Notes under the pieces: generated by a model
Databases searched by the model: none
Told to the model about the DNA's origin: nothing
The model's input: the letters and a program-made list of their open reading frames with translations, nothing else
Shown here: positions 8,299 to 31,436 of the stretch, piece by piece
Layout of the letters: each line of letters starts with the position of its first letter
How positions within the stretch are numbered: the stretch's first letter is position 1
From: Cylindrospermopsis raciborskii Cr2010
GTDB taxonomy: Bacteria > Cyanobacteriota > Cyanobacteriia > Cyanobacteriales > Nostocaceae
Direction of reading: 5' to 3'
NCBI RefSeq assembly: GCF_003367075.2
Contig: NZ_CP065936.1
Coordinates: 660,001-692,000, forward strand
DNA: 32,000 nucleotides
Made by a program: the position numbers and the translations under genes

Positions 8299-9846
8299 CT
8301 AACTGCGAATAACGGTAATAGTGCGTCCCCCTGGACTAATAGCTTGCTCCGTACTAATTCTCTCTCCCATGGGTGGTAACCCCGCACGGCGATCGAAAAT
8401 CACTAACCAACCTGTATCCAATCCTAAACCATCCAGATATTTATCCAATTGGATCAAACCCTGGGTTAGCGGATCTAACTTTTCTTTCCGCACCTTTAAC
8501 TCTATGCCCATCACCACTTTGCCATAGCGCAAACAAATATCCATCCTCCCAGAACCAATGGCATATTCTCGTTCTAACGTACCACCACCATTCACTACCC
8601 GATGCAAAAATGCCATTAACACCAAGTGAGGAGCAATCTCATGGTAGGGCGCACTTTTGAGCAGTGGTTCCCCATGTTGTCGCCAAAATTCCAAAAAAGA
8701 GTCTAATAGGATTTGAGGGTTGAGTGTGCCATCAGGGTTTAACCAGTTGGGTTCCACCGAAGTTAAAGAGGCGATCGCCACGGAGGCTAAAGCTTTAGGT
8801 AAAATCTCTCGATAAATAGGGTTAGCAATTTCCAGTCCACCCCCGCGATCGCGACGGCATAAACCCAGATCTAACACGTATCGTAAGTTATCTTCTGGCG
8901 TATCAGCTAAGTCTTCACCAGCTAACATAGGTTGAATAATGTCCCTGACCCTATCTTCCCGTAATCTTTCTGCCAAGCTATCTAAATGGGTATCCTGGCG
9001 TCGAATCAGAATTTCCTTGGCTTGGTTAATCACTTCAGCAGTAATGGGTTGGGTGATATCTTTCACTAAAACCTGAGTAGCTTGACGAGCTAGGGCGTTA
9101 ACTAACCACGGTTGTCCATCGGTCAAATAAAATGCCTGATGGATGGCTTCCGGGGTAAACACCTGTCCCGTAGCTTGCGTATGTTGTAAGTAAAGTTCTT
9201 CTACTTCTGATAAAGTAAAATTACTGAGGGTTAAAGACTCAGCCTTGATATTGAAAGGACTGGAAGTATTAAGTCTTTTACTTCCACCGGATTTAACCTT
9301 ATAGTCCCGCACATCCCGCATACCAATCAACCCCACCGAATGGGGAAACGCCCGGGGACGACGGGGAAAACCCGAACGTAATTGTCTTAAAATAAAGATT
9401 AAAGCTTCATCTGTCAGGGAATCTATTTCATCTAAAAAGATTACAAGAGGTCTTGGAGATTGGGTAGACCACTCACTTAAAGTTTTGCCTATTCCTGAGT
9501 CTGTTTCACCCTCTGGCCAATAGGATGGTTGTAGTTCTTTGGGTAAGTAAAACTTAATTGCCTGTTTCCATTCTTGTAAAATAACCTGCTCCGCTTGCTG
9601 GGGATTATGGGAAAATCCCGATCCTACTTCCACAGAGAGCATGACGGCGGTGTATTCCCCACTATCAGTCAATTCTTGAGCTAGAGCTATCATAGCGGTG
9701 GTTTTGCCTACTTGTCGCGGCGCATGAATGATAAAGTAATTGCGACCATCAATTAGTGCTTTCAAATCCGGTAGTCGAACCGTTGGGGAGAGCATATAGT
9801 GGATATCAGATTGGCAAGGACCAGCAGTATTAAAGTGTTTGGGCAT
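8299..9846 (-). CDS. P-loop ATPase with a C-terminal PD-(D/E)XK-like module (AAA-ATPase-like plus PDDEXK-type architecture)
   Basis: 515 aa. Walker A is HAPRQVGKTTAM and Walker B is LVIFLDEIDSL. The C-terminus has GRMDICLRYGKVVMGIELKVRKEK (D...E-x-K). The architecture is the same as the ORF at 22514..24082. Confidence 0.6.
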   Translation of the reverse strand: MPKHFNTAGPCQSDIHYMLSPTVRLPDLKALIDGRNYFIIHAPRQVGKTTAMIALAQELTDSGEYTAVMLSVEVGSGFSHNPQQAEQVILQEWKQAIKFYLPKELQPSYWPEGETDSGIGKTLSEWSTQSPRPLVIFLDEIDSLTDEALIFILRQLRSGFPRRPRAFPHSVGLIGMRDVRDYKVKSGGSKRLNTSSPFNIKAESLTLSNFTLSEVEELYLQHTQATGQVFTPEAIHQAFYLTDGQPWLVNALARQATQVLVKDITQPITAEVINQAKEILIRRQDTHLDSLAERLREDRVRDIIQPMLAGEDLADTPEDNLRYVLDLGLCRRDRGGGLEIANPIYREILPKALASVAIASLTSVEPNWLNPDGTLNPQILLDSFLEFWRQHGEPLLKSAPYHEIAPHLVLMAFLHRVVNGGGTLEREYAIGSGRMDICLRYGKVVMGIELKVRKEKLDPLTQGLIQLDKYLDGLGLDTGWLVIFDRRAGLPPMGERISTEQAISPGGRTITVIRS

Positions 9847-10038: not shown

Positions 10039-11121
10039 TTAACCGTTGATTGCGGGAGCGGTTAATGCTACAGGTGCTACTTCACCAGCAGCTAGGTCTA
10101 AGGGGAAGTTGTGCGCATTACGCTCGTGCATTACTTCCATACCTAGGTTAGCGCGGTTGATTACGTCAGCCCATGTACCGATTACCCGTCCTTGAGAATC
10201 AATGATGGATTGGTTGAAGTTGAATCCATTCAGGTTGAATGCCATGGTGCTTACACCCAGTGCTGTAAACCAGATTCCTACTACTGGCCATGCTGCCAAG
10301 AAGAAGTGTAGTGAACGGCTGTTGTTGAATGAAGCATATTGGAATATCAATCGTCCGAAGTAACCGTGTGCTGCTACGATGTTGTAGGTTTCTTCCTCTT
10401 GTCCGAACTTGTAACCATAGTTCTGAGACTCGGTTTCGGTTGTTTCTCTTACTAAGGAAGATGTTACCAAGGAACCGTGCATAGCGCTGAACAAGCTACC
10501 ACCGAATACACCTGCTACTCCTAGCATGTGGAAGGGGTGCATGAGGATGTTATGCTCTGCTTGGAACACAATCATGAAGTTGAAGGTTCCAGAGATGCCT
10601 AAAGGCATACCATCAGAGAAGGAACCTTGTCCGATGGGGTAGATTAAGAATACTGCGGTAGCTGCTGCCAAAGGAGCGGAGAATGCTACGCAAATCCAAG
10701 GGCGCATGCCTAAACGGAAGGATAGTTCCCATTCACGACCTAGGTAGCAGGCTACACCAATCAAGAAGTGGAAAATTACTAGTTGGTAAGGACCACCGTT
10801 GTATAACCATTCATCTAAGGATGCAGCTTCCCAAATTGGGTAGAAGTGCAAACCAATAGCGTTGGAGGAGGGAACAACAGCACCAGAGATGATGTTGTTA
10901 CCGTACATTAAGGAACCAGCTACGGGTTCGCGGATACCGTCGATGTCAACGGGGGGAGCAGCAATGAAAGCAATGATGAAGCAAGTGGTAGCTGCAAGTA
11001 GGGTGGGGATCATTAACACGCCGAACCAGCCAATATAAAGGCGGTTGTTGGTGCTGGTGATAAATTCACAGAAGCGATCCCATACGTTGGCGCTTTGGCG
11101 CTGTTGAATGGTGGTGGTCAT
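10039..11121 (-). CDS. psbA: Photosystem II reaction-centre protein D1
   Basis: A 360-aa canonical D1 ([42 protein letters not shown]...[13 protein letters not shown]) with a 16-residue C-terminal extension [16 protein letters not shown]. Residue 130 is Glu. Confidence 0.98.
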
Positions 11122-11189
11122 GTTTTTATAAATGCGGTTTAACCGAAGGTTTATGTATGTTCAGGTAGGTGTTTCTACCTTATGAACTT

Positions 11190-11218
11190 ATATTAAGACA
11201 GATGTTTAGTTTTGTAAA
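11190..11218 (-). promoter_or_regulatory. Candidate psbA promoter (TTTACA-N17-TAATAT)
   Basis: The minus strand reads TTTACA aaactaaacatctgtct TAATAT. The -10 element lies about 70 nt upstream of the ATG at 11121, which fits the short psbA 5' UTRs known in cyanobacteria. Confidence 0.5.
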
Positions 11219-11788
11219 GGGGTTTTTACAAAAATTTTTAATAATTTTGCCAATTAGGGATTTTGCTATATGTAGTAAGGATTTTCGACTACTGTAGGTA
11301 TTTTATATGTATGTAGATCAGATTTTTTTTATACATTTAATTATAATCATCCCGGATAGTTGAGTTTCTTATTAAACTCAAGCTACAAGATTGGTGAAGT
11401 GTTTAGAGAGGCGATCGCACGACTATTTTAGTCAAGGAATATTTGCGCAATTCGGGACTAGAATTTGCAGCTGGTAACCAGTTCGGTACTGATACCTATT
11501 TTCCCTTCTTTAGGGCCCAGCTGAAGGCGGTCAACTTTCCCGCAAACACACGGCAAAGCCCCTAAAGGTTAAGCAAAGGGGAATTAATTGCCAAATCTCC
11601 CCCACTGCGGTTTAAAACTGGTAAATGAGGCTTTTAACCTGATGATTAAATTGTCTATAGCTGACAATATAGACCTCCAAGTTATAGTGTTTATAAAGAA
11701 CTAGGGAGCGGCGAATAGCTTGGATAATCCACTCCATTTTAATTTTAAACTCTTGTGTGGACTTGTGATAATATGTTTGCCACGCGAG

Positions 11789-11816
11789 CTCCCATAGGGA
11801 GTGCTTCGCGATCGCC
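11789..11816. repeat. 28-bp repeat CTCCCATAGGGAGTGCTTCGC(A/G)ATCGCC, copy B
   Basis: Direct repeat of 8271..8298. This copy contains a full HIP1 site. Confidence 0.8.
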
Positions 11817-11914
11817 TGTGATTTCTATATACTCCTAAATAAGACCACAGATATTTTTAAAAACCAAAACCAAAGTGCTAAAACTGAGTCGATGATTTTA
11901 ATTTGTAACTGTTA

Positions 11915-12226
11915 TCAAGCTAATTCCTCAAAAACAATATCCTCATAAACCGACTGAATGGGAAAACTTAAATCAATACTTTGTAGCTCGATATTATCCC
12001 CCGACTGATAATTAAAAATCTCCCAATTACCCCGATCATTTTTGCGGTATAAATCAATCGCTATTTTCTCAGCATCAACTAAAAGATAATCTTGCAAACT
12101 AGGATTGCGACGATACAATCTAAATTTATCCCCTCGGTCATAACTGGCCGTACTGGGAGATAAAACCTCAACAATTAGACAGGGATATTGAATTGCTTGG
12201 ATTGCAGTGCGATCGCCCTCGTCACA
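11915..12226 (-). pseudogene. 5'-truncated Uma2 (DUF820) family endonuclease remnant
   Basis: The minus frame is open from directly after the phnE stop: CDEGDRTAIQAIQYPCLIVEVLSPSTASYDRGDKFRLYRRNPSLQDYLLVDAEK... It contains the Uma2 core (EVLSPST...D..K...Y) but has only about 103 codons and no ATG. The track ORF 11915..12118 starts at a TTG. Confidence 0.65.
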
Positions 12227-13048
12227 CTAAACCAACCAACTTCTTATCTTAGCAGATAACAAATCAATTATAGCAGTAGCTGCTACTAGAACAATTAAAA
12301 TCGCACAGACTTTTTGATATTGGAAAGCGCCAAAGCTTTGATAAAGTGAAACACCTATGCCACCAGCTCCCACTATGCCCAGAACAGAAGCGGAGCGGAC
12401 ATTAGATTCAAATCTATAAAGCGTAAAAGAAGTCCACAAAGGCATAACCTGGGGAATCACACCATAAATGACCTCTTGAATATGACTAGCACCAGTAGCT
12501 CTAATCCCATCCACTGGACCCGGTTCAATAGATTCTACTGCTTCAGAGAACAATTTACCCAATACTCCAGTGGTGTGTACAAATAAGGCCAATACCCCTG
12601 CAAAGGGACCTAACCCCACTGCCACTACAAATATCAATGCAAACACTATTTCATTAATAGCACGCATAGCATCTAATACTCGCCTTGTTGGTTGCACAAT
12701 CCATATTGGGCACATATTATTGGATGCTAGGATGGATAAGGGAACAGAAACGATCGCCGCCATTAGGGTTCCCCAGAGTCCCATAGAAATTGTAATTACA
12801 GTTTCAGAAAAGTAATATCCCCAGTCGGAAAAGTCTGGTAGAAAATATGATTTAACATACTCCACCATATTGTCTCCACGTTGCAAAAGCACTAAGAAAT
12901 TTAATTCACTTTGTAGATAGGAGGCAATAAGGGCCACAGCAATTGCTAAAACTAACAGAACTTTTTTGGTAGTGACAAGTTTGGCTTCTTTCTCTAACAT
13001 TGCCAAGACATTAGGAGAAGAAACTGGGGTTTCTAATTTCGGGGACAT
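12227..13048 (-). CDS. phnE: Phosphonate ABC transporter permease PhnE
   Basis: 273-aa polytopic membrane protein downstream of phnC-phnD. It shows the binding-protein-dependent permease layout and the EAVESIEPGPVDGIRATGAS region typical of PhnE. Confidence 0.85.
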   Translation of the reverse strand: MSPKLETPVSSPNVLAMLEKEAKLVTTKKVLLVLAIAVALIASYLQSELNFLVLLQRGDNMVEYVKSYFLPDFSDWGYYFSETVITISMGLWGTLMAAIVSVPLSILASNNMCPIWIVQPTRRVLDAMRAINEIVFALIFVVAVGLGPFAGVLALFVHTTGVLGKLFSEAVESIEPGPVDGIRATGASHIQEVIYGVIPQVMPLWTSFTLYRFESNVRSASVLGIVGAGGIGVSLYQSFGAFQYQKVCAILIVLVAATAIIDLLSAKIRSWLV

Positions 13049-13191
13049 GCTCGTATACGCCTAGATTTAATACTATTATACTTGGTGGAGTTATCTATTG
13101 AGAGTAGACCTTCTCTGTTTTCAGGTAGCTGTTGATCTCTAACTTAGTTTTTAAAAATCAACAGCTGATAATTACTGGCAATTAAGTGGTA

Positions 13192-14202
13192 TTAACGTCC
13201 TTGCAGTTTTCGTAGTTGGCTATTCAAGTTGTTTAATTTTTGTTTATCCGCAGGGGTTAGATCAGTTTTAGCCTCCAAGTCCAAAACCTGTTTAGCAAGA
13301 TCCAATTCTCGAATAGGGTTCCAGGTTTTATCATTAGCCGGTATTAACGCTGACCACTGCAAAGGTTCTAAGATTTTTTTGTCTTTGAAATTGTAGAAGA
13401 AATTCTGCAGTTTTTTCTTCACATCAGCTGGTAAATCTTTACGATAAGCTATGGGATCACTAGGGATAATTGGTGATGTCCAGATGATCTCAATGTTCTG
13501 TCTGGCTGAGGGCCTAGTTTTTTCCAGTCTTTCTAGAGACTCATTATTATTAGTGGCTACATCCACCTGGTTATTGGCGACTGCTAAAGCTGTAGCTTCA
13601 TGACTACCTGAGAAAATTAAGCGTTTAAAAACTTTCTTGGGGTCAACTTTATTTTTACCAAATACATAGTAACTAGGTACTAAAAACCCAGAGGTAGAGT
13701 TAGGGTCGTTAAACGCAAAAGTTAATTTACTCGCATTTCGGATCACATATTTATCCCCACCCTGTTTCTTTGCTGCTGCTGTAATTGGACTACTCTTATT
13801 GGCAATTAGATGGGCATAGTAACCTTTTTTTCCATCGCTAGAAACAGTTTGGGCAAAGGCTTCTGCATTGGCAATTTTAGCAGCTTCAATATAGGATTTA
13901 CCTCCATACCAAGCTATTTGCACCTGACCAAAACGCATGGCTTCAATTACCCCCGCATATTGGGTAGCATAAAAAGCTCGCACAGGAATGCCTATGGAAG
14001 TTGATAACGCCGCAATAAATGGTTCCCAAAGGGGTCTTTGATTGGCTTGGGATTCCGTGGAAATGATACCGAAGTTCAGTTCTTTTATTTGTTGGGCTTG
14101 TACTGGCTCAATACCCTTGTTACCAATGGTGGCAATGACTTGAGTACCTAGTAAAGACGCACCAAATAAAGCGGAGCTTTCAATGAATGATCTGCGTTTC
14201 AT
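13192..14202 (-). CDS. phnD: Phosphonate/phosphite ABC transporter substrate-binding protein PhnD
   Basis: LNFGIISTES...YAGVIEAMRFGQVQIAWYGGKSY is the PhnD signature block. The N-terminus MKRRSFIESSALFGASLLG resembles a twin-arginine signal. Ligand specificity (phosphonate or phosphite) cannot be read from the sequence. Confidence 0.85.
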   Translation of the reverse strand: MKRRSFIESSALFGASLLGTQVIATIGNKGIEPVQAQQIKELNFGIISTESQANQRPLWEPFIAALSTSIGIPVRAFYATQYAGVIEAMRFGQVQIAWYGGKSYIEAAKIANAEAFAQTVSSDGKKGYYAHLIANKSSPITAAAKKQGGDKYVIRNASKLTFAFNDPNSTSGFLVPSYYVFGKNKVDPKKVFKRLIFSGSHEATALAVANNQVDVATNNNESLERLEKTRPSARQNIEIIWTSPIIPSDPIAYRKDLPADVKKKLQNFFYNFKDKKILEPLQWSALIPANDKTWNPIRELDLAKQVLDLEAKTDLTPADKQKLNNLNSQLRKLQGR

Positions 14203-21125: not shown

Positions 21126-21227
21126 GGTCTTGGCCTTCTTGAAGCGATTGCGTGGGTTCTTCTTGTAGGATTTTTTCGGTCATGGTAGTCATAATTTTAT
21201 CCCGTTTTGACTATTGGGATTATAACA

Positions 21228-21974
21228 CTACTTTCTGGCAATGTAAAAACCATACCCAAAGTACTTGTTGAACTTGTGGTAGAGTTCAATTTCACTTCTT
21301 TCTTGTTTCACGATTTCTGCTGCTGCTACAATATCAGTATGTCGCCGAATGAAGTCATCAAAACTTGACACCAATGGATTGTAGTAATTTTCCTTCCAGC
21401 AGTAATCTGGAAGCGGAAAGTATCCTATTGGTGAGAAACCGTTTTTTTCAAGAACCATCATCTTCCGTGAGGCCGTATTGATTTCGCCGTATTGAGTGTT
21501 CCAGTAGTCCTCAATTTCTTGTGGACGTTCATCAGTCAACCAAGTGATTTCAGATATTGCCAAAATGCCATCTTCCTTGAGAAAGTTCTTCCAATACTTG
21601 ATACCATTCTCAAACCCCATATTGTAAATTGAACCTTCTCCCCAGATGACATCCAACTGGTTTTCCACAAAAGGTAATTCCTCCATTGGTGAGGTCATTG
21701 TAATTATTCTGTCACTGACTCCATGTTCAATTGCTTTCTTGTGAAGTTTATCTAGGAACTCAGTAGCTATGTCTACTGCTATTATAGATGCTTGCAACTC
21801 TTTTGCTAAAATAAGTGCTGATGCGCCTGTGCCACAACCAATATCAGCAATTTTAAGTCCGGAATGGTTCTTGATTCCTGAGAGTTCTATAGCAAGTTTA
21901 GTTTCTCTGTTTCCCCCAGGTCCTTGTCTTTGTTGATCCTTGTGAAGATCAATTACCAGGTTAAGATTCTCCAT
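21228..21974 (-). CDS. Class I SAM-dependent methyltransferase
   Basis: SAM-binding motif I is IADIGCGTGASALILA and the post-I acidic residue is in AVDI. The substrate is unknown. Confidence 0.8.
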   Translation of the reverse strand: MENLNLVIDLHKDQQRQGPGGNRETKLAIELSGIKNHSGLKIADIGCGTGASALILAKELQASIIAVDIATEFLDKLHKKAIEHGVSDRIITMTSPMEELPFVENQLDVIWGEGSIYNMGFENGIKYWKNFLKEDGILAISEITWLTDERPQEIEDYWNTQYGEINTASRKMMVLEKNGFSPIGYFPLPDYCWKENYYNPLVSSFDDFIRRHTDIVAAAEIVKQERSEIELYHKFNKYFGYGFYIARK

Positions 21975-22080
21975 ACCTCAAGAATTTTTTATCAAAAAAG
22001 GGCTTTGCGCTCACAAAAAGCACTCAAATTTATTGTTGGGCGCCCCCATATTATAATTCATAAAAAAGAATATGACTAAG

Positions 22081-22182
22081 TTATAGATATTGAAACACAA
22101 GGCGATCGCATTCTGGAACCACTACACTGCCAACTACTGTGGTGTCATTAACATTGCCGATAAAATTCCTAGTCTGTGCCAT
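22081..22182 (-). CDS. Small ORF (33 aa), copy 1: MAQTRNFIGNVNDTTVVGSVVVPECDRLVFQYL
   Basis: It is below the track length cutoff. AGAGG lies 11 nt upstream of the ATG. The first 27 codons are duplicated at 25307..25387, with 4 synonymous and 2 non-synonymous codon differences. Confidence 0.4.
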   Translation of the reverse strand: MAQTRNFIGNVNDTTVVGSVVVPECDRLVFQYL

Positions 22183-22343
22183 AATTTGATTACCTCTAAA
22201 AGGGGTGTAAGGTGATCCGGATTTCTTGGAGGAAAGCCTCGATCACCTTACCTTTAAGTATAAAACTACTTGAATAAATATGCAATAGGTTTATTGAAAA
22301 AAATTAATAAAATTTGTAAATCTTTTAGACTTGTCAAGCATAA
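22102..22343. repeat. 242-bp direct repeat, copy 1 (left boundary of the accessory cassette)
   Basis: It aligns with 25307..25549 with 16 differences (15 substitutions and 1 indel, by manual alignment). It starts exactly at a HIP1 site. Confidence 0.9.
22207..22251 (-). promoter_or_regulatory. Conserved leader hairpin upstream of small ORF copy 1
   Basis: GTAAGGTGATC...GATCACCTTAC forms an 11-bp perfect stem with a 23-nt loop that can itself pair further. The stem is identical in the second copy at 25412..25456, and the loop differs at one base. On the minus strand it lies between a TTGACA hexamer and the small-ORF SD/ATG. Confidence 0.45.
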
Positions 22344-22513
22344 GTGAAAAATATAAGAAATTTGGACTCACGCAATCCCCTCGGAACCACAAGGATGGTT
22401 TACACTGTAAATTGTGGTCAATAAAGAAAACTGCTGTAATAGTTATGCCATTTTAACCTTGCCATATAGGATACACTTATCTACTTAATTTTCTATATGG
22501 CCTTAGATTTTAT

Positions 22514-24082
22514 ATGAAAGAGTTCAACACAGTCGGCATTTGTCAGATAGAAAAGCACTACATGTGCGATGTGACAGCAAAATTCAATAGATGTAGTCAA
22601 CTGATAGAAAGTGGCAAATATTTTGCCATCAATTTCCCCCGCCAACATGGGAAGACCACCATGCAGAATCTGCTGGCAAAAAGCTTTGAGAAGGTGGAAA
22701 CATATCTGGTAATCAGCACCAGTTTCGAGGGGATTGGCGACCTACCATTTGAAAGTGAGAAAAATCTGGCGGGCATGATACCTGTGGTTTTTGCCAAAGG
22801 ATTGTTCTTCAACCACCCGGAACTAGCGGACTGGCTTGAAGGTGAAGCCAGGAAAATAGAAAACTTCCAACAACTTTCAAGATTTATCAGCGATTGGGTT
22901 AGTAAGTCTGGGCTAAAAATTGTTTTGCTGCTGGACGAAATTGACAAAGCCAGCAACAACCAGGTGTTCATCAATTTCTTGTCCTTGTTACGGGACAAAT
23001 ACCTAGCAGCAGCACAAGGTCGAGATGCCACCTTTCATTCCGTAGTACTGATTGGTATCCATGATGTGAAGACCTTGAAGTTAAAGCTTACCACGGGTGA
23101 GGAGCGCAAGCTGAACAGTCCTTGGAACATTGCTGTAGACTTGGATATCGAATTCACCTTCACCCAGCAGGAAATTGAACCCATGCTCGTGGAATATGCC
23201 CGTGAGCATATACTCACCATAGACTCTCATTTATTGGCTCAGCTTCTGTTTTACTATACCAATGGTAATCCTTTCCTTATTAGCAAGATGTGCCAGGTCA
23301 TTGATGAAGTTTATATGCGTGAAAATAAGCGACCTTGGGCATCTGAGGACATCGACGCAGCCTACACATACCTAGTGGATGGAGCTTATACCACGACCCA
23401 CTTTGATGATATTGACAAAAACCTGGAAAACAACGAAGATCTTTTCCACCTGGTCAAAGATATTGTGATCAATGGTATGGCATTGAAGTTCAATGTCAGC
23501 AATCCAGTTATTGCCAAGGGCAAAGTCTATGGAATACTAAGGGGAAACGAGCAGGGTCTCTGCGATATCAGCAATAAAATCTATGAATACCGAATTCTTG
23601 ACTACCTACTTTCTAAGCAGGAAACTGACCATGGCCTCCTTGACCGATACCGAGACAGCGGATTCATATCTGGTGGAAGACTCAATATTGAGCTAATCTT
23701 GGAGAGATTCCAGTGGTTCATGCAGGAGCATCATTCATCTAAAGACAACGATTTTCTGGAGTCCAACGGGCGTATGTTGCTCATGTCTTTCTTTCGCCCG
23801 ATCATCAATGGTAAGGGATACCTATTTAAGGAGAATGTGACTGCGGAAGACCGTAGGATGGATTTGGTGGTTACCTACAACAACCAGCGTTATGTGATCG
23901 AACTGAAAATCTGGTACGGTGAAAAGCGGCTCCAGGATGGACTTGATCAGCTTTGTAGCTACCTAGATTCGTACAGGTTGAACGAGGGACATATAATTGT
24001 ATTCAATTTTAATAAAAACAAGGCCTACGATACACGGAAAATTGTTCACCGTGGCAAACGTCTTACTGCTGTCTTCGTCTAG
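22514..24082 (+). CDS. P-loop ATPase with a C-terminal PD-(D/E)XK-like module (divergent paralog of 8299..9846)
   Basis: 522 aa. The N-terminus MKEFNTVGICQIEKHYM parallels MPKHFNTAGPCQSDIHYM. Walker A is FPRQHGKTTM and Walker B is IVLLLDEIDKA. The C-terminus has RRMDLVVTYNNQRYVIELKIWYGEK. I saw no HIP1 site inside the gene. Confidence 0.6.
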   Translation: MKEFNTVGICQIEKHYMCDVTAKFNRCSQLIESGKYFAINFPRQHGKTTMQNLLAKSFEKVETYLVISTSFEGIGDLPFESEKNLAGMIPVVFAKGLFFNHPELADWLEGEARKIENFQQLSRFISDWVSKSGLKIVLLLDEIDKASNNQVFINFLSLLRDKYLAAAQGRDATFHSVVLIGIHDVKTLKLKLTTGEERKLNSPWNIAVDLDIEFTFTQQEIEPMLVEYAREHILTIDSHLLAQLLFYYTNGNPFLISKMCQVIDEVYMRENKRPWASEDIDAAYTYLVDGAYTTTHFDDIDKNLENNEDLFHLVKDIVINGMALKFNVSNPVIAKGKVYGILRGNEQGLCDISNKIYEYRILDYLLSKQETDHGLLDRYRDSGFISGGRLNIELILERFQWFMQEHHSSKDNDFLESNGRMLLMSFFRPIINGKGYLFKENVTAEDRRMDLVVTYNNQRYVIELKIWYGEKRLQDGLDQLCSYLDSYRLNEGHIIVFNFNKNKAYDTRKIVHRGKRLTAVFV

Positions 24083-24112
24083 CCAACTGTTGATGCGATC
24101 GCCCAGTGTAAT

Positions 24113-24595
24113 CTACCGTCGGTAAAGTAGATGGTCTGGATCTAGCCACACAATGTAAAAGATTTCTTCAATAAAGAAGCCGTGCACCCTGCCATGTTCA
24201 TTGGAACAAATAGAAAATTGATAAGGTGTATCCACTATCTGTTCTTCTCCAGGGATACCAAAGCCCGATTCAGTTGTATCCTCCCAAGTAATTGGATGGC
24301 AGCGTAACGCTTTACTACGGTTGCTGATAAGTTCCTGAGCCGTCCAACTAGAAATATCTCTAAGTCTTTCAAGAAGACCAAGCAAGTAATCGGAGTTCCT
24401 ACCCACAACTGAAAAATCCCTGTGGTCACTCTGAAAGTACTTGTATGAGAAGCTTATTCCTTTTGACCAATTCTCTGTGACAGTGGGCTTTATTTTAGAA
24501 GGAGACTGATTTTGAAGTTCAGTCTTCTTAATCTTATTCTTCTTCGGCACGTACTTTGTAATACTCCCTGATAGATTCCTTGGTAATAATTTCAT
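24113..24595 (-). CDS. Uncharacterised protein overlapping the 3' end of the Panacea antitoxin gene; candidate toxin (PanT-like, possibly RelE/HigB-like fold)
   Basis: The ORF is open from 24640. Possible starts are ATG 24640, 24607 or 24595, or GTG 24550 (17-nt overlap with the panA-like gene). It has a Lys-rich N-terminus. The C-terminus LLERLRDISSWTAQELISNRSKALRCHPI...YQFSICSNEHGRVHGFFIEEIFYIVWLDPDHLLY resembles the HigB pattern (...ELNRQIYKLHPLKGDREGYWSITVRANWRITFQFINGDAYILNYEDYH) by eye only. Confidence 0.45.
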   Translation of the reverse strand: MKLLPRNLSGSITKYVPKKNKIKKTELQNQSPSKIKPTVTENWSKGISFSYKYFQSDHRDFSVVGRNSDYLLGLLERLRDISSWTAQELISNRSKALRCHPITWEDTTESGFGIPGEEQIVDTPYQFSICSNEHGRVHGFFIEEIFYIVWLDPDHLLYRR

Positions 24596-24992
24596 TACAG
24601 GGAGCATCCATAGGTAGGGAACCCCTTGCTCTTGCTTCAATCCAAGGGGTTTCTTGGTGGGTCATGCGTTCTAATTCGTAAGCATCGCACTGGAAGTACA
24701 CTTCCACAACCTCATCCAAAAAACTTCTGATATTTTCAGGCAAGTTAGGCTCCTCTACTTCTTGTTGGATGGGACGCCATCCAAAACCCTTATATTGCTG
24801 ATACAGCACAGGAATGACCGGCCCATGAACCCAGGCCTCAAATTCTTCTTCAAACAGAGCAGTATCGTAGAGCGCTAAATGCCAGGCCTGAGCATAGTAA
24901 ACCAGCTTTTGTAATTTGAGGTTGCTAATATATGAACCAGTTTCGTTTGCCAGGTGAATGAAATAACGTGCTACATCAAAACTAGTAAGCAT
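24534..24992 (-). CDS. Panacea-domain (DUF4065, SocA/GepA-like) protein; putative type II antitoxin PanA
   Basis: FDVARYFIHLANETGSYISNLKLQKLVYYAQAWHLALYDTALFEEEFEAWVHGPVIPVLYQQYKGFG matches the DUF4065 consensus (..ITNLKLQKLLYYAQGW.L...G.PLF.E.IEAW.HGPV.P.VY..YK.YG). A strong SD (AAGGGGGA) precedes the ATG. Confidence 0.85.
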   Translation of the reverse strand: MLTSFDVARYFIHLANETGSYISNLKLQKLVYYAQAWHLALYDTALFEEEFEAWVHGPVIPVLYQQYKGFGWRPIQQEVEEPNLPENIRSFLDEVVEVYFQCDAYELERMTHQETPWIEARARGSLPMDAPCNEIITKESIREYYKVRAEEE

Positions 24993-25051
24993 GTTTTTCC
25001 CCCTTTAAACCAGGACAAGAACCAAGAATTCCCCACACTTAACATAGGGTA

Positions 25052-25080
25052 ATCATAACAATAGGTGCATCAAAAGTCAA
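25052..25080 (-). promoter_or_regulatory. Candidate sigma70-type promoter of the panA-like/toxin operon
   Basis: The minus strand reads TTGACT tttgatgcacctattgt TATGAT (17-nt spacer). The -10 element is about 60 nt upstream of the ATG at 24992. Confidence 0.55.
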
Positions 25081-25145
25081 GTTAAATTTAGAATTGCTGA
25101 CGATCACCACTTTTTGTTTTTGTCGATAGCTTCTGCAGTGTACAC

Positions 25146-25286
25146 ATAGGTGTTATCTTTTGGTTAATTCCCAACAAGAGGCATCTCTAACGCTTATTTT
25201 AGCATACCAGTCAGCTACTTTTGTATTGGGGTGTCTCACCTTAAAAAGTAGTATTGGTAACGCTTTGGCTATTTCCGGAGATGTCT
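25146..25286 (-). mobile_element. Solo 141-bp terminal fragment (IRL end) of the IS5-superfamily element found intact at 30293..31433
   Basis: Its reverse complement matches 30293..30433 with 3 mismatches. It begins with the terminal AGACATCTCCGGAAA. Homology stops abruptly at 25146, and no transposase or second end is present. Confidence 0.9.
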
Positions 25287-25387
25287 AATCGCTTTAATGG
25301 TTCCCTGCGATCGCATTCTGGAACTACCACGATGCCAACTACAGTAGTGTCATTAACATTGCCAGTAAAATTCCTAGTCTGTGCCAT
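25241..25387 (-). pseudogene. Small ORF copy 2, fused to IS-derived sequence: MAQTRNFTGNVNDTTVVGIVVVPECDRREPLKR-LDISGNSQSVTNTTF
   Basis: The start and SD are the same as in copy 1. From 25286 downward the reading frame runs into the IS end, which supplies the last 13-15 codons and the stop. Confidence 0.5.
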
Positions 25388-25549
25388 AATTTGATTACCT
25401 CTAAAAGGGGTGTAAGGTGATCCGGATTTCTTGGAGGAAGGCCTCGATCACCTTACCTTTAAATATAAAACTACTTGACTAAATATGCAAGAAGTTTATT
25501 GAAAATAAATTAATAAAGCTTGTAAATCTTTTAGACTTGTCAAGCATAA
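25307..25549. repeat. 243-bp direct repeat, copy 2 (right boundary of the accessory cassette)
   Basis: See 22102..22343. It also starts at a HIP1 site, and the same hairpin lies at 25412..25456. Confidence 0.9.
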
Positions 25550-25670
25550 ATAGATTTGTTGGGTAATAATCCAGAATATTCCTGAAAGGCTTTTCCGACA
25601 AGGATTTCGGGAATTATACCGTGAAATCCCTCAAAGATGGACTCCATAAGGATTTCTGGTATTTTAATCA

Positions 25671-26585
25671 CTATTTCCCAACAGGTCTAATGTAAACTTC
25701 CACAACTCTTGCATCAATATTTTCACTAGGATCAGAATTAATCACGTTTTGTCTTTTCACTTCCCAGCCAATTCTCTCTACTGATCCCTGCAATTCTCCC
25801 TCAAGAGAACTACTAGATATTTTCACCTGCTGCTGAGGAAGGATTTTACTAATGTCACTCTGGTAGACTTCCGCTACTGCGTACATCTGACTAGTTTCGC
25901 CAATTTCTACTATCCCCTCATTCCCCACTAGCTCTCCAGCGCGGGTATGGATCTCAAATACTACTCCCTTTTGAGGAGATTTAATATAGGCTTGATCCAA
26001 ATTGACCTTTGCTTGCTGTGCTGCTGCTTTGGCACGATTTAGTTCCGCCCTCGCTGCTGCTATATCTATAGGACGTACTTCCGCAATTTTATTCAAAATA
26101 GCTTTGGCTGAGATAATTTGCTCCCCACCTGTAGAACGGATTCGATTTAGAGCAGTTTTTGCCTCTTCAATTTGCTTTCTGCTAGTATTATCTATTGCTT
26201 CTGCTTCTTCGTATGCTGCTTGTAATCGAGGTTTGTTGTCTAAAATTGCTATTATTTGTCCAACCTTTACCATATCTCCCTCTTTTACCAACAGTCTCTC
26301 AACCCTACTTCCCTGAGTTAAGGTGGATGCAGAAAGTTTAATCACTTTTCCTCTCGGTTCAAGTCTTCCTAAAGCAGTGACAGTATGAATTGGTGGTATG
26401 GTACTTTCACTCGTTGGTGTTTGATTAGCTTTAGAATGTTGGGTTAGCAAAATCTTGTACAGCTGCAACCCACCAACTCCCATAATTATGGCAGTTCCTA
26501 GGATAACTAATGATCTTAGCACTTGTGGATTTGGCTTAGACTCTAGATCACCTACCATAGCTTTTACCTCGAATTTACTTGCCAC
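25671..26585 (-). CDS. DevB-family (HlyD-type) ABC exporter membrane fusion protein, probably 3'-truncated and orphaned
   Basis: VTALGRLEPRGKVIKLSAS...RVERLLVKEGDMVKVGQIIAILDN is the DevB N-terminal signature. The ORF ends ...DARVVEVYIRPVGK, shortly after the conserved ARVVEV block. No devC or devA follows. The track ORF has a GTG start, and ATG codon 10 is an alternative. Confidence 0.7.
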   Translation of the reverse strand: MASKFEVKAMVGDLESKPNPQVLRSLVILGTAIIMGVGGLQLYKILLTQHSKANQTPTSESTIPPIHTVTALGRLEPRGKVIKLSASTLTQGSRVERLLVKEGDMVKVGQIIAILDNKPRLQAAYEEAEAIDNTSRKQIEEAKTALNRIRSTGGEQIISAKAILNKIAEVRPIDIAAARAELNRAKAAAQQAKVNLDQAYIKSPQKGVVFEIHTRAGELVGNEGIVEIGETSQMYAVAEVYQSDISKILPQQQVKISSSSLEGELQGSVERIGWEVKRQNVINSDPSENIDARVVEVYIRPVGK

Positions 26586-28043: not shown

Positions 28044-29297
28044 ATGGCTCAAATAAAAGTTCAAAACTTCGGACCTATTAAATCAGGACTTGTGGAAAAT
28101 GATGGCTTGGTGGATATTCGTAAAATTACTGTTTTTATTGGTAATCAAGGGACAGGAAAAAGTAGTATTGCAAAATTGATTTCCATGTTTAGTTGGCTGG
28201 AAAAACAATTATACCGAGGTAGTTTAGACGAGAAAGATGTAATATCTCGCAACCGACTTGTGAATATATATTGTAACTATAACAACTTAAAGAAATACTT
28301 TAGATCTGGAACTGAAATAGAATATCGCGGTAGTGCTTATACAATGACTTATGCTGATAGTAAATTAACTATTAATCGCAGTGATAATACTCCTAGGAAA
28401 TATGTGTTACCTAAAATTATGTATATTCCAGCGGAGAGGAATTTTTTCAGTGTAATCAAGAAAGCGGAAAAAGTAAAAGGTTTACCTCTCATGCTGCTTG
28501 ACTTTTTCAAAGAATTGGAAAGGTCTCAACAGGAGTTATCAGAAACTTTAGACTTGCCAGTAGGAAATGTGAAGCTGGAGTTTGATCAAACTAGTCAAAA
28601 TTTAATTCTTAGAGGCGATAACTATAAATTGAATATTTCTGAGGCTTCTAGTGGTTTTCAATCCTTGGTTCCAGCGTTTTTAGTCTCTAGGAATATCGCC
28701 TTGTCTATTAATCAAAATCAAGGTTCTTCTCAAAGCGAACTAAGTGCAGAAGAACAAAAAAGACTCACTACTGAAATACAAGCAATTATCAATGATGAAA
28801 ATTTGTCTAAAGAAGTTAAAAAAGCTGCTTTAGAGTTATTATCTTCCAAGTATAGAAATGAATGTTTTCTTAATATTGTGGAAGAACTTGAACAAAATTT
28901 ATTTCCTACATCACAAAGAGATATATTGTATAAGTTATTGGAATTCGTCAATATTACAGCTGGTAACACACTAATTATGACCACTCATAGTCCTTACATT
29001 ATTGACTATCTTACCTTAGCAATTAAAGCACAGCAAATTTTACAAACTTTTGATAATTTACCGAAGGGAGAGTTTTTAAAAACTAAACTCAAAAATATTG
29101 TTCCTTTGAATTCTTCCATATTTCCAGAAGATTCAATTGTATATGAGCTAACAGATAGTGGAGAAATTAGAAAACTTTCTACCTATGAAGGACTACCTTC
29201 CGATGAAAATTATTTGAATAGTTGTTTAGCAGAAACCAATCGATTTTTCAGTGATTTATTAGAAATTGAGGAAGAAATACTATCATCAGTAGTGTAG
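28044..29297 (+). CDS. ABC/SMC-like (AAA_15/AAA_21-type) ATPase, orphan; the motif set is common in abortive-infection and defence ATPases
   Basis: 417 aa. The N-terminus is IKVQNFGPIK. Walker A is GNQGTGKSS, a Q-loop-like motif is IPAERN, the signature-like motif is SEASSGFQSL, Walker B is FLNIVEELEQNLFP, and the H-loop is LIMTTHSPYIIDYL. The gene is visibly AT-rich and I saw no HIP1 site in it. Confidence 0.65.
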   Translation: MAQIKVQNFGPIKSGLVENDGLVDIRKITVFIGNQGTGKSSIAKLISMFSWLEKQLYRGSLDEKDVISRNRLVNIYCNYNNLKKYFRSGTEIEYRGSAYTMTYADSKLTINRSDNTPRKYVLPKIMYIPAERNFFSVIKKAEKVKGLPLMLLDFFKELERSQQELSETLDLPVGNVKLEFDQTSQNLILRGDNYKLNISEASSGFQSLVPAFLVSRNIALSINQNQGSSQSELSAEEQKRLTTEIQAIINDENLSKEVKKAALELLSSKYRNECFLNIVEELEQNLFPTSQRDILYKLLEFVNITAGNTLIMTTHSPYIIDYLTLAIKAQQILQTFDNLPKGEFLKTKLKNIVPLNSSIFPEDSIVYELTDSGEIRKLSTYEGLPSDENYLNSCLAETNRFFSDLLEIEEEILSSVV

Positions 29298-29561
29298 AGA
29301 ATTGTGATCGGGGTTAGGTAGTAAATGTACCCTTCCTCAACCTGACCTAGGACGAATCAGTTGGGTAAAATTAGTCGGCTCTTGCGTAGATTTTATGGAT
29401 AGAAAGTAAATTAACAGAAATTAATAGTTGACAATTTTTAGAATCGAGGGCTGAAATACAATAGACACAAAAGTTTACAGATTTTTATGTATGTCTAAAT
29501 ACCGGAAGTGATATAATTATATAATTAGAGATGTACAAATCAAGAATTGACGGAGGTAGTT

Positions 29562-30292
29562 ATGAAATTTCCTATAGAGCAAATCCTCAATCTACCAGAA
29601 ATGAAAATATTAGATTGCCAAGAAATAGAAGGCGCAGGAATAATCATTACAATTGAGAAAGCAGTCAACCACTGTACCTGCCCTAATTGTGGACATATTA
29701 CCCATAGTATACACCAAAACCACTGGCGAATGATACATGATTTACCGTGGAGTGAAAAGCCAGTGTTTTTAAAAATAAATCGTCGTCAATTTAAGTGTCA
29801 TAAGTGTAAAAAAGTGTTTAGTGAAAAACTAGACTTTGTGGACAAAAGTAAAGGATATACAAAAAGATTAGCTACTAACATAGTGGAACAAGTATTGAAT
29901 AGTAACATTTATAGTGTCGCCAAAAGAAACGACCTCAGTGATGAAGAAGTAGAATCAATCTTAAAAAGGCAAGTAGCACAAATACAGAAGATAAATTTAA
30001 GAGGAGTGAAAAGGTTAGGGATAGATGAAATAGCCTTGGTCAAAGGACAAGGAAACTATTTAGCAGTATTGGTAGATTTAGATACTCGAAAACCTATCGA
30101 AATAGTGAAAACAAGAAGGATAGAAGATATACGTGAAGTCCTTACAGGGTGGGGATTAGAGGCACTGGAGCAAATACAAGAAGTGAGTATTGATATGTGG
30201 TCTCCTTACAAAAGTTTGGTAGAAGAATTAATGCCCAATGCTAATATAACAGCAGATAGATTTCATGTAATGAAACAGGTAAATGATGAATT
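29562..30292 (+). pseudogene. ISL3-family transposase, N-terminal part (interrupted)
   Basis: It has the zinc-finger-like CPNCGH...CHKC and HTH region typical of ISL3 transposases. GGAGG precedes the ATG at 29562. The frame is broken after ...FHVMKQVNDEL by the nested IS. Confidence 0.85.
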
Positions 30293-31433
30293 AGACATCT
30301 CCGGAAATAGCCAAAGCGTTACCAATACTACTTTTTAAGGTGAGACACCCCAATACAAAAGTAGCTAGCTGGTATGTTAAAATAAGCGTTAGAGATGCCT
30401 CTTGTTGGGAATTAACCAAAAGATAACACCTATCTGAGATAATTTATTTTTAGCCAAGTCCAAATCTTGATAACTAAAATAAGTAGGTTCCCATTCGGAA
30501 ACGAACAAGTCCACAAATAGTCATGATTACCTGTTCATACTTACTTGAATTTAATCGAAATCTTTCTTGTGCCACTCTGAATATTTTCACTACACGAATT
30601 AAATGTTCAACAAAAATTCGTTCGGAAGCTAACTCTTTATTTTTTTCTTTTTGTTCAGACGTTAATTCTTGGTTTTTAGGTTTTTTTGTCGGAGTTTTCA
30701 TTAACTCCTCTCCTTGATAAGCTTTATCACCACTAAATTTTTGTTTTTTATCAAATATATTTCTGGTTTCACGGAATAAATTTACATCACTTTTTGGACC
30801 AGGTTTACCCGCTACTACATCAACAATATCTTTACCATTTGGTAAAACGATTAGTTGACTTTTTCTAGTATGACAGGCTTTTTTACCTGAATAATATTTT
30901 TTTTGTTCTTGGTACTCTCCAGGTCTGTCTATAGGCTGTTCATAGCTATCCACTATTAACTCAAATTCTGTTAATATTTCTTTAACGACTTCGTAATCAC
31001 TGGAGTTTTTTTTTACCTGTTCTAGCAAACTTGGTGGCAATAATTCTCCTATTATTGGCAACCAATAGTTAAAGATATCATTTGCAGTTGTTTCACTTAC
31101 TCCAAATTGAATACCTAGTAGCTGAAATGTTGTTAACTGCCGTAAATATGTTAATGTTAAGATTATTTGCTCCGACGGTGATAATTTGGGTTTGCGCCCT
31201 CCACCGCCTTGAATAATTCGGGTTTTTTTTGATTCAACCAATTGTTGTTTCTGATGATGCAGTTTTATGGCTTTTTCCAAAAGTTGCTGTAACTGCTCAT
31301 ACTTCAGACCCAATAAACGGTGTGATTCGTGAGGATTATTCTGGATATATTCAGATATGTTGCTCATAATAAGTTGCCAAAAATACCATTTCATATTATT
31401 TTATCACACTTTGATTCTTTTTCGGAGATGTCT
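30293..31433 (-). mobile_element. 1141-bp IS5-superfamily (DDE_Tnp_4/Harbinger-like) insertion sequence nested in the ISL3 transposase gene
   Basis: The terminal IRs are AGACATCTCCGGAAA and AGACATCTCCGAAAA. ATT flanks both ends (30290..30292 and 31434..31436). Removing the IS plus one ATT restores an uninterrupted 406-codon ISL3 transposase ORF (...VNDELDNMRKTEKK...). Confidence 0.9.
30474..31394 (-). CDS. IS5-superfamily DDE transposase (HTH_Tnp_4 plus DDE_Tnp_4-like)
   Basis: It has an N-terminal HTH region (LTYLRQLTTFQLLGIQFGVSETTANDIF), DDE-region blocks LIVDSYEQPIDRP, GKPGPKSDVNLF and SGDKAYQG, and a C-terminal ERIFVEHLIRVVKIFR. The start may be ATG 31367 (MSNISEY...). Confidence 0.85.
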   Translation of the reverse strand: MKWYFWQLIMSNISEYIQNNPHESHRLLGLKYEQLQQLLEKAIKLHHQKQQLVESKKTRIIQGGGGRKPKLSPSEQIILTLTYLRQLTTFQLLGIQFGVSETTANDIFNYWLPIIGELLPPSLLEQVKKNSSDYEVVKEILTEFELIVDSYEQPIDRPGEYQEQKKYYSGKKACHTRKSQLIVLPNGKDIVDVVAGKPGPKSDVNLFRETRNIFDKKQKFSGDKAYQGEELMKTPTKKPKNQELTSEQKEKNKELASERIFVEHLIRVVKIFRVAQERFRLNSSKYEQVIMTICGLVRFRMGTYLF

Positions 31434-31436
31434 ATT

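Follow-up and report, generated by a model that had tools for sequence, protein, structure and literature searches.

Units formed by tandem duplication or by Campbell-type integration consist of direct copies of one segment that bracket a stretch of DNA without any dedicated recombinase, and RecA-mediated exchange between the copies can delete or amplify what lies between them. The locus described here belongs to a 32,000-nucleotide stretch (hereafter the window) of Cylindrospermopsis raciborskii Cr2010, positions 660,001 to 692,000 of contig NZ_CP065936.1, in which a pair of direct repeats of about 242 bp encloses accessory genes. It resembles the units just mentioned in that two direct copies of one segment stand around cargo, and differs from them in that the copies are old (5-7% diverged), broken and fixed across a species group. 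It differs from site-specific islands with att repeats in having no integrase and in that its repeats are diverged copies of a protein gene and not tRNA-derived att sites. The repeats are probably, at a rough probability of 0.7, the remains of an old, fixed and decaying duplication of a unit of about 0.5 kb containing a gene of 83 codons, here called gene83; we infer that this duplication is likely to have had an integrase-free, homology-driven origin.

The repeats lie at 22102-22343 (left copy, L) and 25307-25549 (right copy, R) and are 242 and 243 nucleotides long. Alignment with MAFFT and a recount gave 93.4% identity and 16 differences, 15 substitutions and one indel (BLAST E-value about 1e-101), which bears out the 16 differences and about 93% identity counted by hand in an earlier note on this sequence. 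The longest perfect block common to both copies is 74 nucleotides. The homology breaks off sharply at both ends, and no third copy was found within the window with BLAST and a repeat search. Each repeat comprises a promoter, a leader with a hairpin of 11-bp arms and the first 27 codons of gene83, arranged on the minus strand in the order TTGACA (a -35-like box), hairpin, ACCCC, a GAGG ribosome-binding site and ATG. The hairpin consists of GTAAGGTGATC, 23 nucleotides and GATCACCTTAC, and is followed by ACCCC. In the left copy the TTGACA box is found at 22337-22332, the hairpin at 22207-22251 and the ATG at 22182; in the right copy the hairpin is at 25412-25456. The N-terminus encoded in the repeats is MAQTRNF(I/T)GNVNDTTVVG(S/I)VVVPECDR. 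The left copy is intact in related genomes, where it encodes 83 amino acids, and the protein is identical in nine assemblies. In the lineage of the window it is a truncated pseudogene of which an open reading frame (ORF) of 33 codons remains (22081-22182), while the ORF of the right copy (48 codons, 25241-25387) runs on into the end of an insertion sequence (IS). No Rfam family above the gathering score and no tRNA or tmRNA gene was found in the whole window; a snoRNA match in the repeat, obtained from Rfam with permissive E-values, was dismissed as a chance hit.

Both gene83 copies and the same cargo are contiguous in eleven Cylindrospermopsis/Raphidiopsis assemblies, ten from NCBI and one a JGI metagenome contig, and the chromosome-scale sequences CP060822, CP195152 and CP073250 are among them. 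The order in the relatives is NDH-2, devB-devC-devA, a right gene83 stub (called as an ORF of 48 amino acids), PanA, a toxin candidate, an ATPase on the opposite strand and the intact gene83, followed by a variable TPR/HATPase gene, a response regulator and cysK. Eight of the assemblies were aligned directly to the window, and in these the counterpart of positions 22102-25689 has an identity of 99.1-99.5%. Two further conserved assemblies align to CP060822 at 97.5-98.2%, and GCA_036409495 is an exception with about 95% identity. The earlier note had proposed to search related genomes for an empty site with a single repeat copy, and had named as contrary evidence the same two copies with conserved core genes between them. 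In a sample biased toward occupied loci no empty site was found, all 11 contiguous related assemblies being occupied; the same two copies are indeed present in the eleven relatives, but the genes enclosed are accessory and not core.

The exceptional genome (locus L061, on the 3.35-Mb contig of GCA_036409495.1) shows decay of the cassette, the left gene83 and the TPR gene at positions 10200-13800, with about 5-10% mismatches and many indels, and has no intact panA or ATPase gene. Its devBCA genes, right copy and IS scar are 100% identical to those of the other strains, and the decay boundary is sharp at the inner edge of the scar. In the TPR gene that follows gene83, tandem repeats of 102 bp vary in copy number between strains (L063 14054-15334 and equivalents); the predicted products of this gene range from 478 to 1243 amino acids, or the gene is split.

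The comparison with relatives shows that the duplication once reached further than the repeats of the window. In loci L049, L050 and L051 the homology between the copies covers 259 bp. The right gene83 continues at 25290-25306 on the minus strand, corresponding approximately to codons 28-33, and this part is homologous to the intact left copy of the relatives and not to the left copy of the window. The coding-side end of the 259-bp homology is situated 3 nucleotides from the TA dinucleotide that abuts the IS terminus, and an IS therefore interrupted the right gene83 near codon 38. What remains of this element is a truncated IS5-family end on the minus strand at 25143-25289, with the terminus at about 25287 and the interior deleted; it measures 147 bp instead of the 141 bp reported earlier. 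The complete IS5-family element at 30290-31436 has an end that matches it with 97.3% identity. In locus L053 (GCA_018969285.1, 3-1149) a full-length IS of 1147 bp with the sequence variants of the scar is found at the scar position; the contig stops at the far IS end, and one side of the insertion is visible. Beyond the scar, at about 25097-25142 on the minus strand, a remnant of 47 nucleotides matches the sequence 60-105 nucleotides past the left gene83 stop codon and ends at CGATCG. The local alignment score of this remnant is 54, compared with a mean of 29.1 (sd 4.8, max 47) for shuffled sequences. The right copy was thus once a complete unit, and the duplication spanned at least about 512 bp.

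An IS next to the right copy invites the explanation that the cassette was delivered by an IS, as a composite transposon or by IS-adjacent capture, with the repeats as by-products of transposition. An IS5-family end does abut the right copy, a full IS occupies this site in L053, and the same IS is inserted at 24202 in locus L003. The locus has only the one truncated IS end, with no second IS flanking the cargo, and the element interrupts the right gene83 instead of bounding the duplication, remnants of the flank being present on both sides of it. IS5-family target duplications are only a few bp long. The flanks of the complete copy in the window, as we read them, fit a 2-bp TA target duplication and not one of 242-512 bp. 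Delivery by an IS is consequently considered very improbable.

The age of the duplication can be judged from the differences between the copies. When the R-vs-L differences are polarised with the other gene83 paralogs, approximately 9 of 13 are derived states unique to the right copy, and R shows no variation (100% identity) among the strains compared. Together these observations indicate that most of the pseudogene decay of R took place before the sampled strains separated. In every strain L and R differ by the same 5-7%, which, with the invariant R, places the duplication event itself before strain divergence.

That the repeat pair is an artefact of assembly is effectively refuted. Draft assemblies do break at this locus, but the breaks are at the IS end and not at the 242-bp repeat; moreover the copies differ at 16 positions and the structure is contiguous in CP060822, CP195152 and CP073250.

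Outside the cassette gene83 is a dispersed gene. The family unit of about 420 bp, consisting of promoter, hairpin leader and ORF, is found at a minimum of four chromosomal loci across the clade and in one plasmid copy, with about five copies per genome. One paralog is located beside a tandem AAA-ATPase_like/PDDEXK_9 array and a dynamin-like GTPase gene (loci L069-L073, the P0005 locus), one is near radC and glycosyltransferase genes, one adjoins hetZ, and one is on the 146-kb plasmid p-r.curvispora1 of C. curvispora, near type I CRISPR-Cas genes (L103, NZ_CP060823.1 129215-129466). Homologues occur in Nostocales and other filamentous cyanobacteria. The 11-bp hairpin arms are invariant in all paralogs (hairpins outside the window at L070 7928, L078 7931 and L079 484), and two of the paralogs have the 23-nucleotide loop reverse-complemented with respect to the remaining three. 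This orientation differs between paralogs only, no polymorphism being found within orthologous gene83 loci. A long hairpin with a run of C also precedes the gene83 homologues on Anabaena cylindrica plasmids and in Nostoc sp. PCC 7107, and in the latter the stems are made of HIP1 palindromes. The AlphaFold2 model of the protein is confident at residues 30-80, with non-significant matches in the PDB. gene83 is a previously undescribed family of small genes with a conserved structured leader. An 83-amino-acid ORF beside a ResIII helicase, first taken for a paralog, was found to be unrelated.

The paralogs of the P0005 locus lie head to head with AAA-ATPase_like/PDDEXK_9 tandem arrays that are strain-variable. 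An ATPase gene beside gene83 is a recurrent arrangement, although the ATPases concerned are remote relatives (24% identity).

On the promoter side, the likeness among all paralogs sets in no more than about 10 bp from the end of the repeat. This end therefore marks where the family unit naturally stops and is not a junction peculiar to the cassette. With a unit so dispersed, two independent insertions of a self-spreading gene83 unit could have placed R and L around cargo that was already resident, and the bracketing would be coincidental. The sharp 5' boundaries shared between copies in unrelated chromosome and plasmid contexts agree with this, as does the fact that the unit often borders on variable regions such as those with ATPase arrays, IS insertions or CRISPR-Cas. 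However, no other paralog comes near the similarity between R and L: over the first 259 bp these two are 93-95% identical to each other, against 86%, 83-85% and 73-75% to three other paralogs. The 3' stretch shared by L and R also extends about 45 bp past the point where the paralog at the hetZ locus ceases to resemble the left copy, and this additional common flank argues that R and L were copied from one another or from a shared template and did not arrive independently. The unit has no transposase, and the hallmarks of a miniature inverted-repeat transposable element or other non-coding repeat are lacking, since it has neither terminal inverted repeats nor target-site duplications and encodes a conserved protein of 83 amino acids. 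A genome has, besides, only some five copies. Two separate insertions are unlikely on this evidence.

Several features that are conspicuous in the window arose later and are specific to its lineage. The arrangement is common to three draft assemblies (GCA_045377475, GCA_045377345 and GCA_045377515; 99.5-99.9% identity), the contigs of which break at the IS end. On the minus strand a segment of 974 bp (21128-22101), with a gene for an S-adenosylmethionine-dependent methyltransferase at 21228-21974, stands in place of the 3' part of gene83, the TPR/HATPase gene and the response regulator of the relatives. One of its junctions coincides to the base with the 3' edge of the HIP1 octamer at 22102, and the other comes 2 bp past the cysK stop codon. 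In a scan of representative genomes the best matches of the methyltransferase, with at most 56% identity, were from Proteobacteria, Bacteroidota and other metagenome-assembled genomes, and no close cyanobacterial relative was found; the gene is for this reason regarded as foreign. The observation in the earlier note that both repeats begin at a HIP1 octamer, at 22102 and 25307, is correct. The octamer corresponds to codons 24-27 of the gene83 ORF, and both repeats start there in the window because the later methyltransferase replacement cut the left copy at this point; the duplication itself did not end at the HIP1 octamer.

On the other side of the cassette a devB remnant is found at 25671-26585 on the minus strand (TIGR02971, 228 bits, profile covered to position 306 of 327). 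A deletion of 341 bp inside devB has its junction at 26181-26195, and a deletion of 2037 bp, with the junction at 25685-25689, removes the 3' part of devB, devC and devA. Compared with the other genomes both deletions are restricted to the lineage of the window. The truncated devB gene and the methyltransferase, which had been described as the outer flanks of the cassette, are thus both present but are later lineage-specific changes and not the original flanks. Resistance of C. raciborskii to CrV-like phages has been linked with heterocyst and cell-surface genes (PMC10811720); a tie between phage resistance and the dev deletions is speculative.

The methyltransferase domain matches the PADLOC model mad2 (E = 6e-18), and the promoter of the truncated gene83 is now directed at this foreign gene.

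Taken together, the comparisons suggest the following history for a duplicated gene83 unit. The unit would span from about 155 bp upstream of the gene83 start to about 105 bp past the stop, including the promoter and the hairpin leader. Before the strains diverged the locus would have had the order devBCA, gene83 R, panA-toxin, ATPase/nuclease (opposite strand), gene83 L and TPR gene. The unit-cargo-unit structure is of the kind that RecA-type recombination yields and was most likely formed by it, through single-crossover insertion of a circle with unit and cargo, or through the topologically equivalent tandem duplication of cargo and unit with subsequent loss of one cargo copy. The later events are shown by the relatives: an IS5-family element entered copy R near codon 38, a deletion then took the interior of the IS together with the rest of gene83 R and its terminator, and R gathered unique substitutions in the manner of a pseudogene. 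In the lineage of the window copy L was cut at the HIP1 octamer in codons 24-27 and joined to the foreign methyltransferase, and the 3' part of devB, devC and devA were lost. The proposal in the earlier note of a Campbell-type integration or a duplication is retained insofar as two copies of one chromosomal segment bracket accessory cargo; the ends visible in the window are secondary, and the structure is ancestral.

The earlier proposal also implied that the 3.2-kb segment is a circular cassette, integrated by a Campbell-type crossover, that is or recently was mobile and can be excised through the 242-bp repeats. The unit-cargo-unit topology and the perfectly identical block of 74 nucleotides are as expected from such a cassette, and the permuted order in a metagenome contig (L102, described below), the gene83 unit on the 146-kb C. 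curvispora plasmid and the movement of a part of the cargo (panA) into phages also speak for it. On the other hand, the cassette occupies the site in each of the eleven related assemblies and has the same junctions there, and the copies are 5-7% apart in all strains with an invariant right copy. R is broken by the IS scar and L is truncated in the window lineage, and an excision product would be without a complete unit. No integrase or recombinase was found with Pfam, NCBIfam and PADLOC among the cassette ORFs or the flanking genes, the 147-bp IS end being the only transposase-related sequence, and any recombination between the repeats would therefore have to be homologous. The whole cassette was found neither among the phages of INPHARED, where only the panA segment of the region occurs, nor among the plasmids of PLSDB, where only the gene83 paralog does. 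No empty site, deletion allele or circle junction was seen among the retrieved loci, a sample biased to occupied loci. A pattern of 33 nucleotides for the devA-side junction gave no match in a metagenome collection that also lacks known occupied loci and evidently does not contain these samples. The hairpin pattern had no match in viral contigs, and exact-protein matches for devB', cysK and NDH-2 (two start choices) were not found. A cassette mobile at present or in the recent past is improbable. The structure today is a fixed chromosomal island with no sign of programmed excision. The 74-nucleotide block in the stubs could still permit rare RecA-dependent deletion or amplification of the 3.2-kb segment.

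Some points weigh against the reading as an old duplication. The loci were retrieved via proteins in or beside the occupied locus, and the sample is thereby biased toward occupied sites; among these loci no single gene83 was found between devA and the TPR gene, so that the state before the duplication is a reconstruction. No switch of parental state was found within the first 262 nucleotides, and the data do not separate a Campbell-type insertion from a tandem duplication. The order of events is reconstructed and not seen. The gene83 protein has no Pfam or NCBIfam match, and a fold search gave non-significant ACT-like matches only. The metagenome contig L102 (Ga0172373_10053929, 3426 bp) belongs here as well. 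It consists of 859 bp of unmatched sequence, the 3' part of the toxin gene, the ATPase gene, gene83 codons 1-44, the panA promoter and panA. There is no IS scar, and the gene83 is of the left type, sharing two substitutions with the left copy of the window. A tandem or circular arrangement in a lineage free of the IS would account for the contig, but it is equally possible that the sequence downstream of the left copy was replaced independently. The panA allele of this single contig is only 91% identical to the standard one, and its left 859 bp have no match in the fetched loci or in phage records.

A wider role for the gene83 unit can be imagined, as portable homology through which a segment of about 3.4 kb with gene83, PanAT and ATPase circularises or amplifies by RecA and docks at any paralog on a chromosome or plasmid, the hairpin or the HIP1/CGATCG sites being preferred breakpoints. 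This extension is unlikely. If true, it would mean integrase-free shuffling of defence cargo in polyploid cyanobacteria.

The cargo enclosed by the repeats was confirmed by profile searches to be as first described, with an ATPase gene on the plus strand, a panA-like gene and a toxin candidate on the minus strand with a promoter of their own, and an IS end. The motif of the panA promoter, TTGACT-N17-TATGAT, is located at 25080-25052 on the minus strand, and the left boundary of the panA module (CAATTC...) is at about 25096 and recurs in L102. The panA gene (24534-24992, minus strand) encodes a Panacea antitoxin of 152 amino acids that matches SocA_Panacea (PF13274) with 80.5 bits against a cut-off of 25.7; the NCBIfam SocA equivalog is below its cut-off (76 versus 190). 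The toxin candidate at 24113-24550 on the minus strand has 145 amino acids when read from the GTG at 24550; a purely mechanical ORF call begins further upstream, at a TTG at 24640. This partner is called in 7 assemblies, as an ORF of 145-160 amino acids, and in these panA overlaps it by at least 17 nucleotides.

The partner family has 540 homologues, of which all named members are cyanobacterial. Pfam has no model for it, and among family profiles it matches only MAG6450 of NCBIfam, weakly and at the C-terminus. The AlphaFold2 model of the partner has a mean pLDDT of 82. In a Foldseek search of the PDB the top 17 matches are all toxins of toxin-antitoxin modules, nearly all of them HigB, YafQ, YoeB or RelE, and one is a chain of a Streptococcus pneumoniae toxin-antitoxin complex without a family name. 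These matches are weak (E 0.13-1.4; target-normalised TM-scores 0.43-0.57). PanAT systems were described by Kurata et al. 2022 (PMC8832971) and Ernits et al. 2023 (PMC10440598), and Panacea antitoxins pair with many types of toxin, including mRNA interferases (PMC8832971). The gene pair agrees with these systems in that a Panacea (DUF4065) antitoxin is encoded directly upstream of, and overlapping, a small toxin candidate in a variable region of the chromosome, and in that Panacea homologues also occur in phages. It differs in that the partner family is cyanobacterial by its named members, without a Pfam model, and has a predicted fold that is weakly RelE/HigB-like. It is reasonable to regard the pair as a PanAT system with a predicted RelE-like candidate toxin.

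The toxin gene is a place of recurrent breakpoints. L003 has an IS inserted at 24202, and L051 lacks 24200-24499; the CrV segment stops at 24357, L102 has its junction at 24353, and the IMG/VR segments stop at 24499.

The ATPase gene (22514-24082, plus strand) lies head to head with the left gene83 and encodes 522 amino acids with an AAA_35 match of 33.6 bits (cut-off 27). The C-terminus has sub-threshold matches to PDDEXK_9 (19.9 versus 25.5) and PDDEXK_3 (18.8 versus 22). Over the full length the protein is 28% identical to the other copy in the window, at 8299-9846. The translational coupling of PanA to a weakly RelE/HigB-like toxin candidate, together with the ATPase/nuclease, makes an anti-phage module the most likely nature of the cargo.

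The cassette has a G+C content of 0.40-0.45, which is unremarkable for the window, and composition is thus uninformative about its origin. A scarcity of HIP1 octamers had also been pointed out. The counts are correct, the octamer at 24095-24102 in the 30-bp gap between the convergent stop codons being the only one in the 2963 bp, but this does not amount to depletion: at 22 octamers per 32 kb over the whole window, about 2 would be expected, with a Poisson P(<=1) of about 0.4.

In phages, antitoxins are known as a means of counter-defence, as with Dmd of T4, which acts against RnlA and LsoA, and the pseudo-ToxI of phiTE. Phages of Cylindrospermopsis carry the panA of this locus. Phage RM-2018a (CrV-01T; MH636380.1 88441-89191, L119) has a segment of 751 bp that is 99.2% identical to window 25107-24357 and contains the panA promoter, panA and the first approximately 64 codons of the toxin; it adjoins the phage CRISPR array, between DNA methyltransferase genes. 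In Cr-LKS4 (OQ625504.1 88191-88703, L120) the panA copy is located between two CRISPR arrays. The PanA proteins of CrV-01T and Cr-LKS4 are 99.3% and 94.1% identical to the host protein. Two IMG/VR contigs (L104 1300-2051 and L105 479-1231), which are from related phages with 75% nucleotide identity in helicase and tail genes, contain window 25091-24499 at 99.3-99.7% identity. Ahead of both copies stand 47 nucleotides from the IS terminus; in L104, the one of the two that was read in sequence, another piece of the scar precedes the copy as well. The IS-terminus pieces show that the IMG/VR copies were captured from this chromosomal locus after the scar had formed. Overall, the phage copies comprise panA and its promoter at 96-99.7% nucleotide identity, with the toxin cut to 17-64 codons, and they start within about 11 bp of the left boundary of the panA module.

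The Cylindrospermopsis phages resemble T4 and phiTE in that they hold a host-matching antitoxin without a working toxin among genes of an anti-defence kind, here DNA methyltransferases and phage CRISPR arrays. They differ in that the phage panA is a recent capture from the host, nearly identical to it (99% of nucleotides), with the promoter and a toxin stub, and with a function that we infer. The simplest reading is that phages probably carry the host antitoxin to neutralise the host toxin, as a counter-defence. A phage-borne host antitoxin is not mentioned in the paper on Cr-LKS3 (PMC9303873).

The surroundings have properties of defence islands, with the toxin-antitoxin pair, the ATPase/nuclease, an ATPase of the PDC-M29A kind, IS elements and the foreign methyltransferase clustered and variable in content between strains; unlike such islands the region has no integrase or tRNA anchor, and the recurring landmark is a small multi-copy gene unit. 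The AAA_15 ATPase gene at 28044-29297, of low G+C (0.30-0.35), matches the candidate defence model PDC-M29A (E = 2e-171). A small partner ORF downstream of it is strain-variable, with 82 or 170 amino acids, and is followed in the window at 29547-31436 by an ISL3 transposase gene interrupted by the complete IS5-family element.

The repeat finding in itself is of low novelty. It is a case of ordinary genome plasticity, an old duplication around accessory genes that has been eroded by an IS and by deletions, and it serves as a worked example of how the apparent ends of an element, here a HIP1 edge and an IS edge, can be secondary breakpoints, and of how a single genome misleads. The parts of note are the gene83 leader family and the phage-borne antitoxin. 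The gene83 family marks several variable regions of a bloom-forming, toxin-producing cyanobacterium. Isolated phages with cultivable hosts carry the antitoxin, at 94-99% protein identity, which makes the hypothesis of defence and counter-defence directly testable in an ecologically important system.

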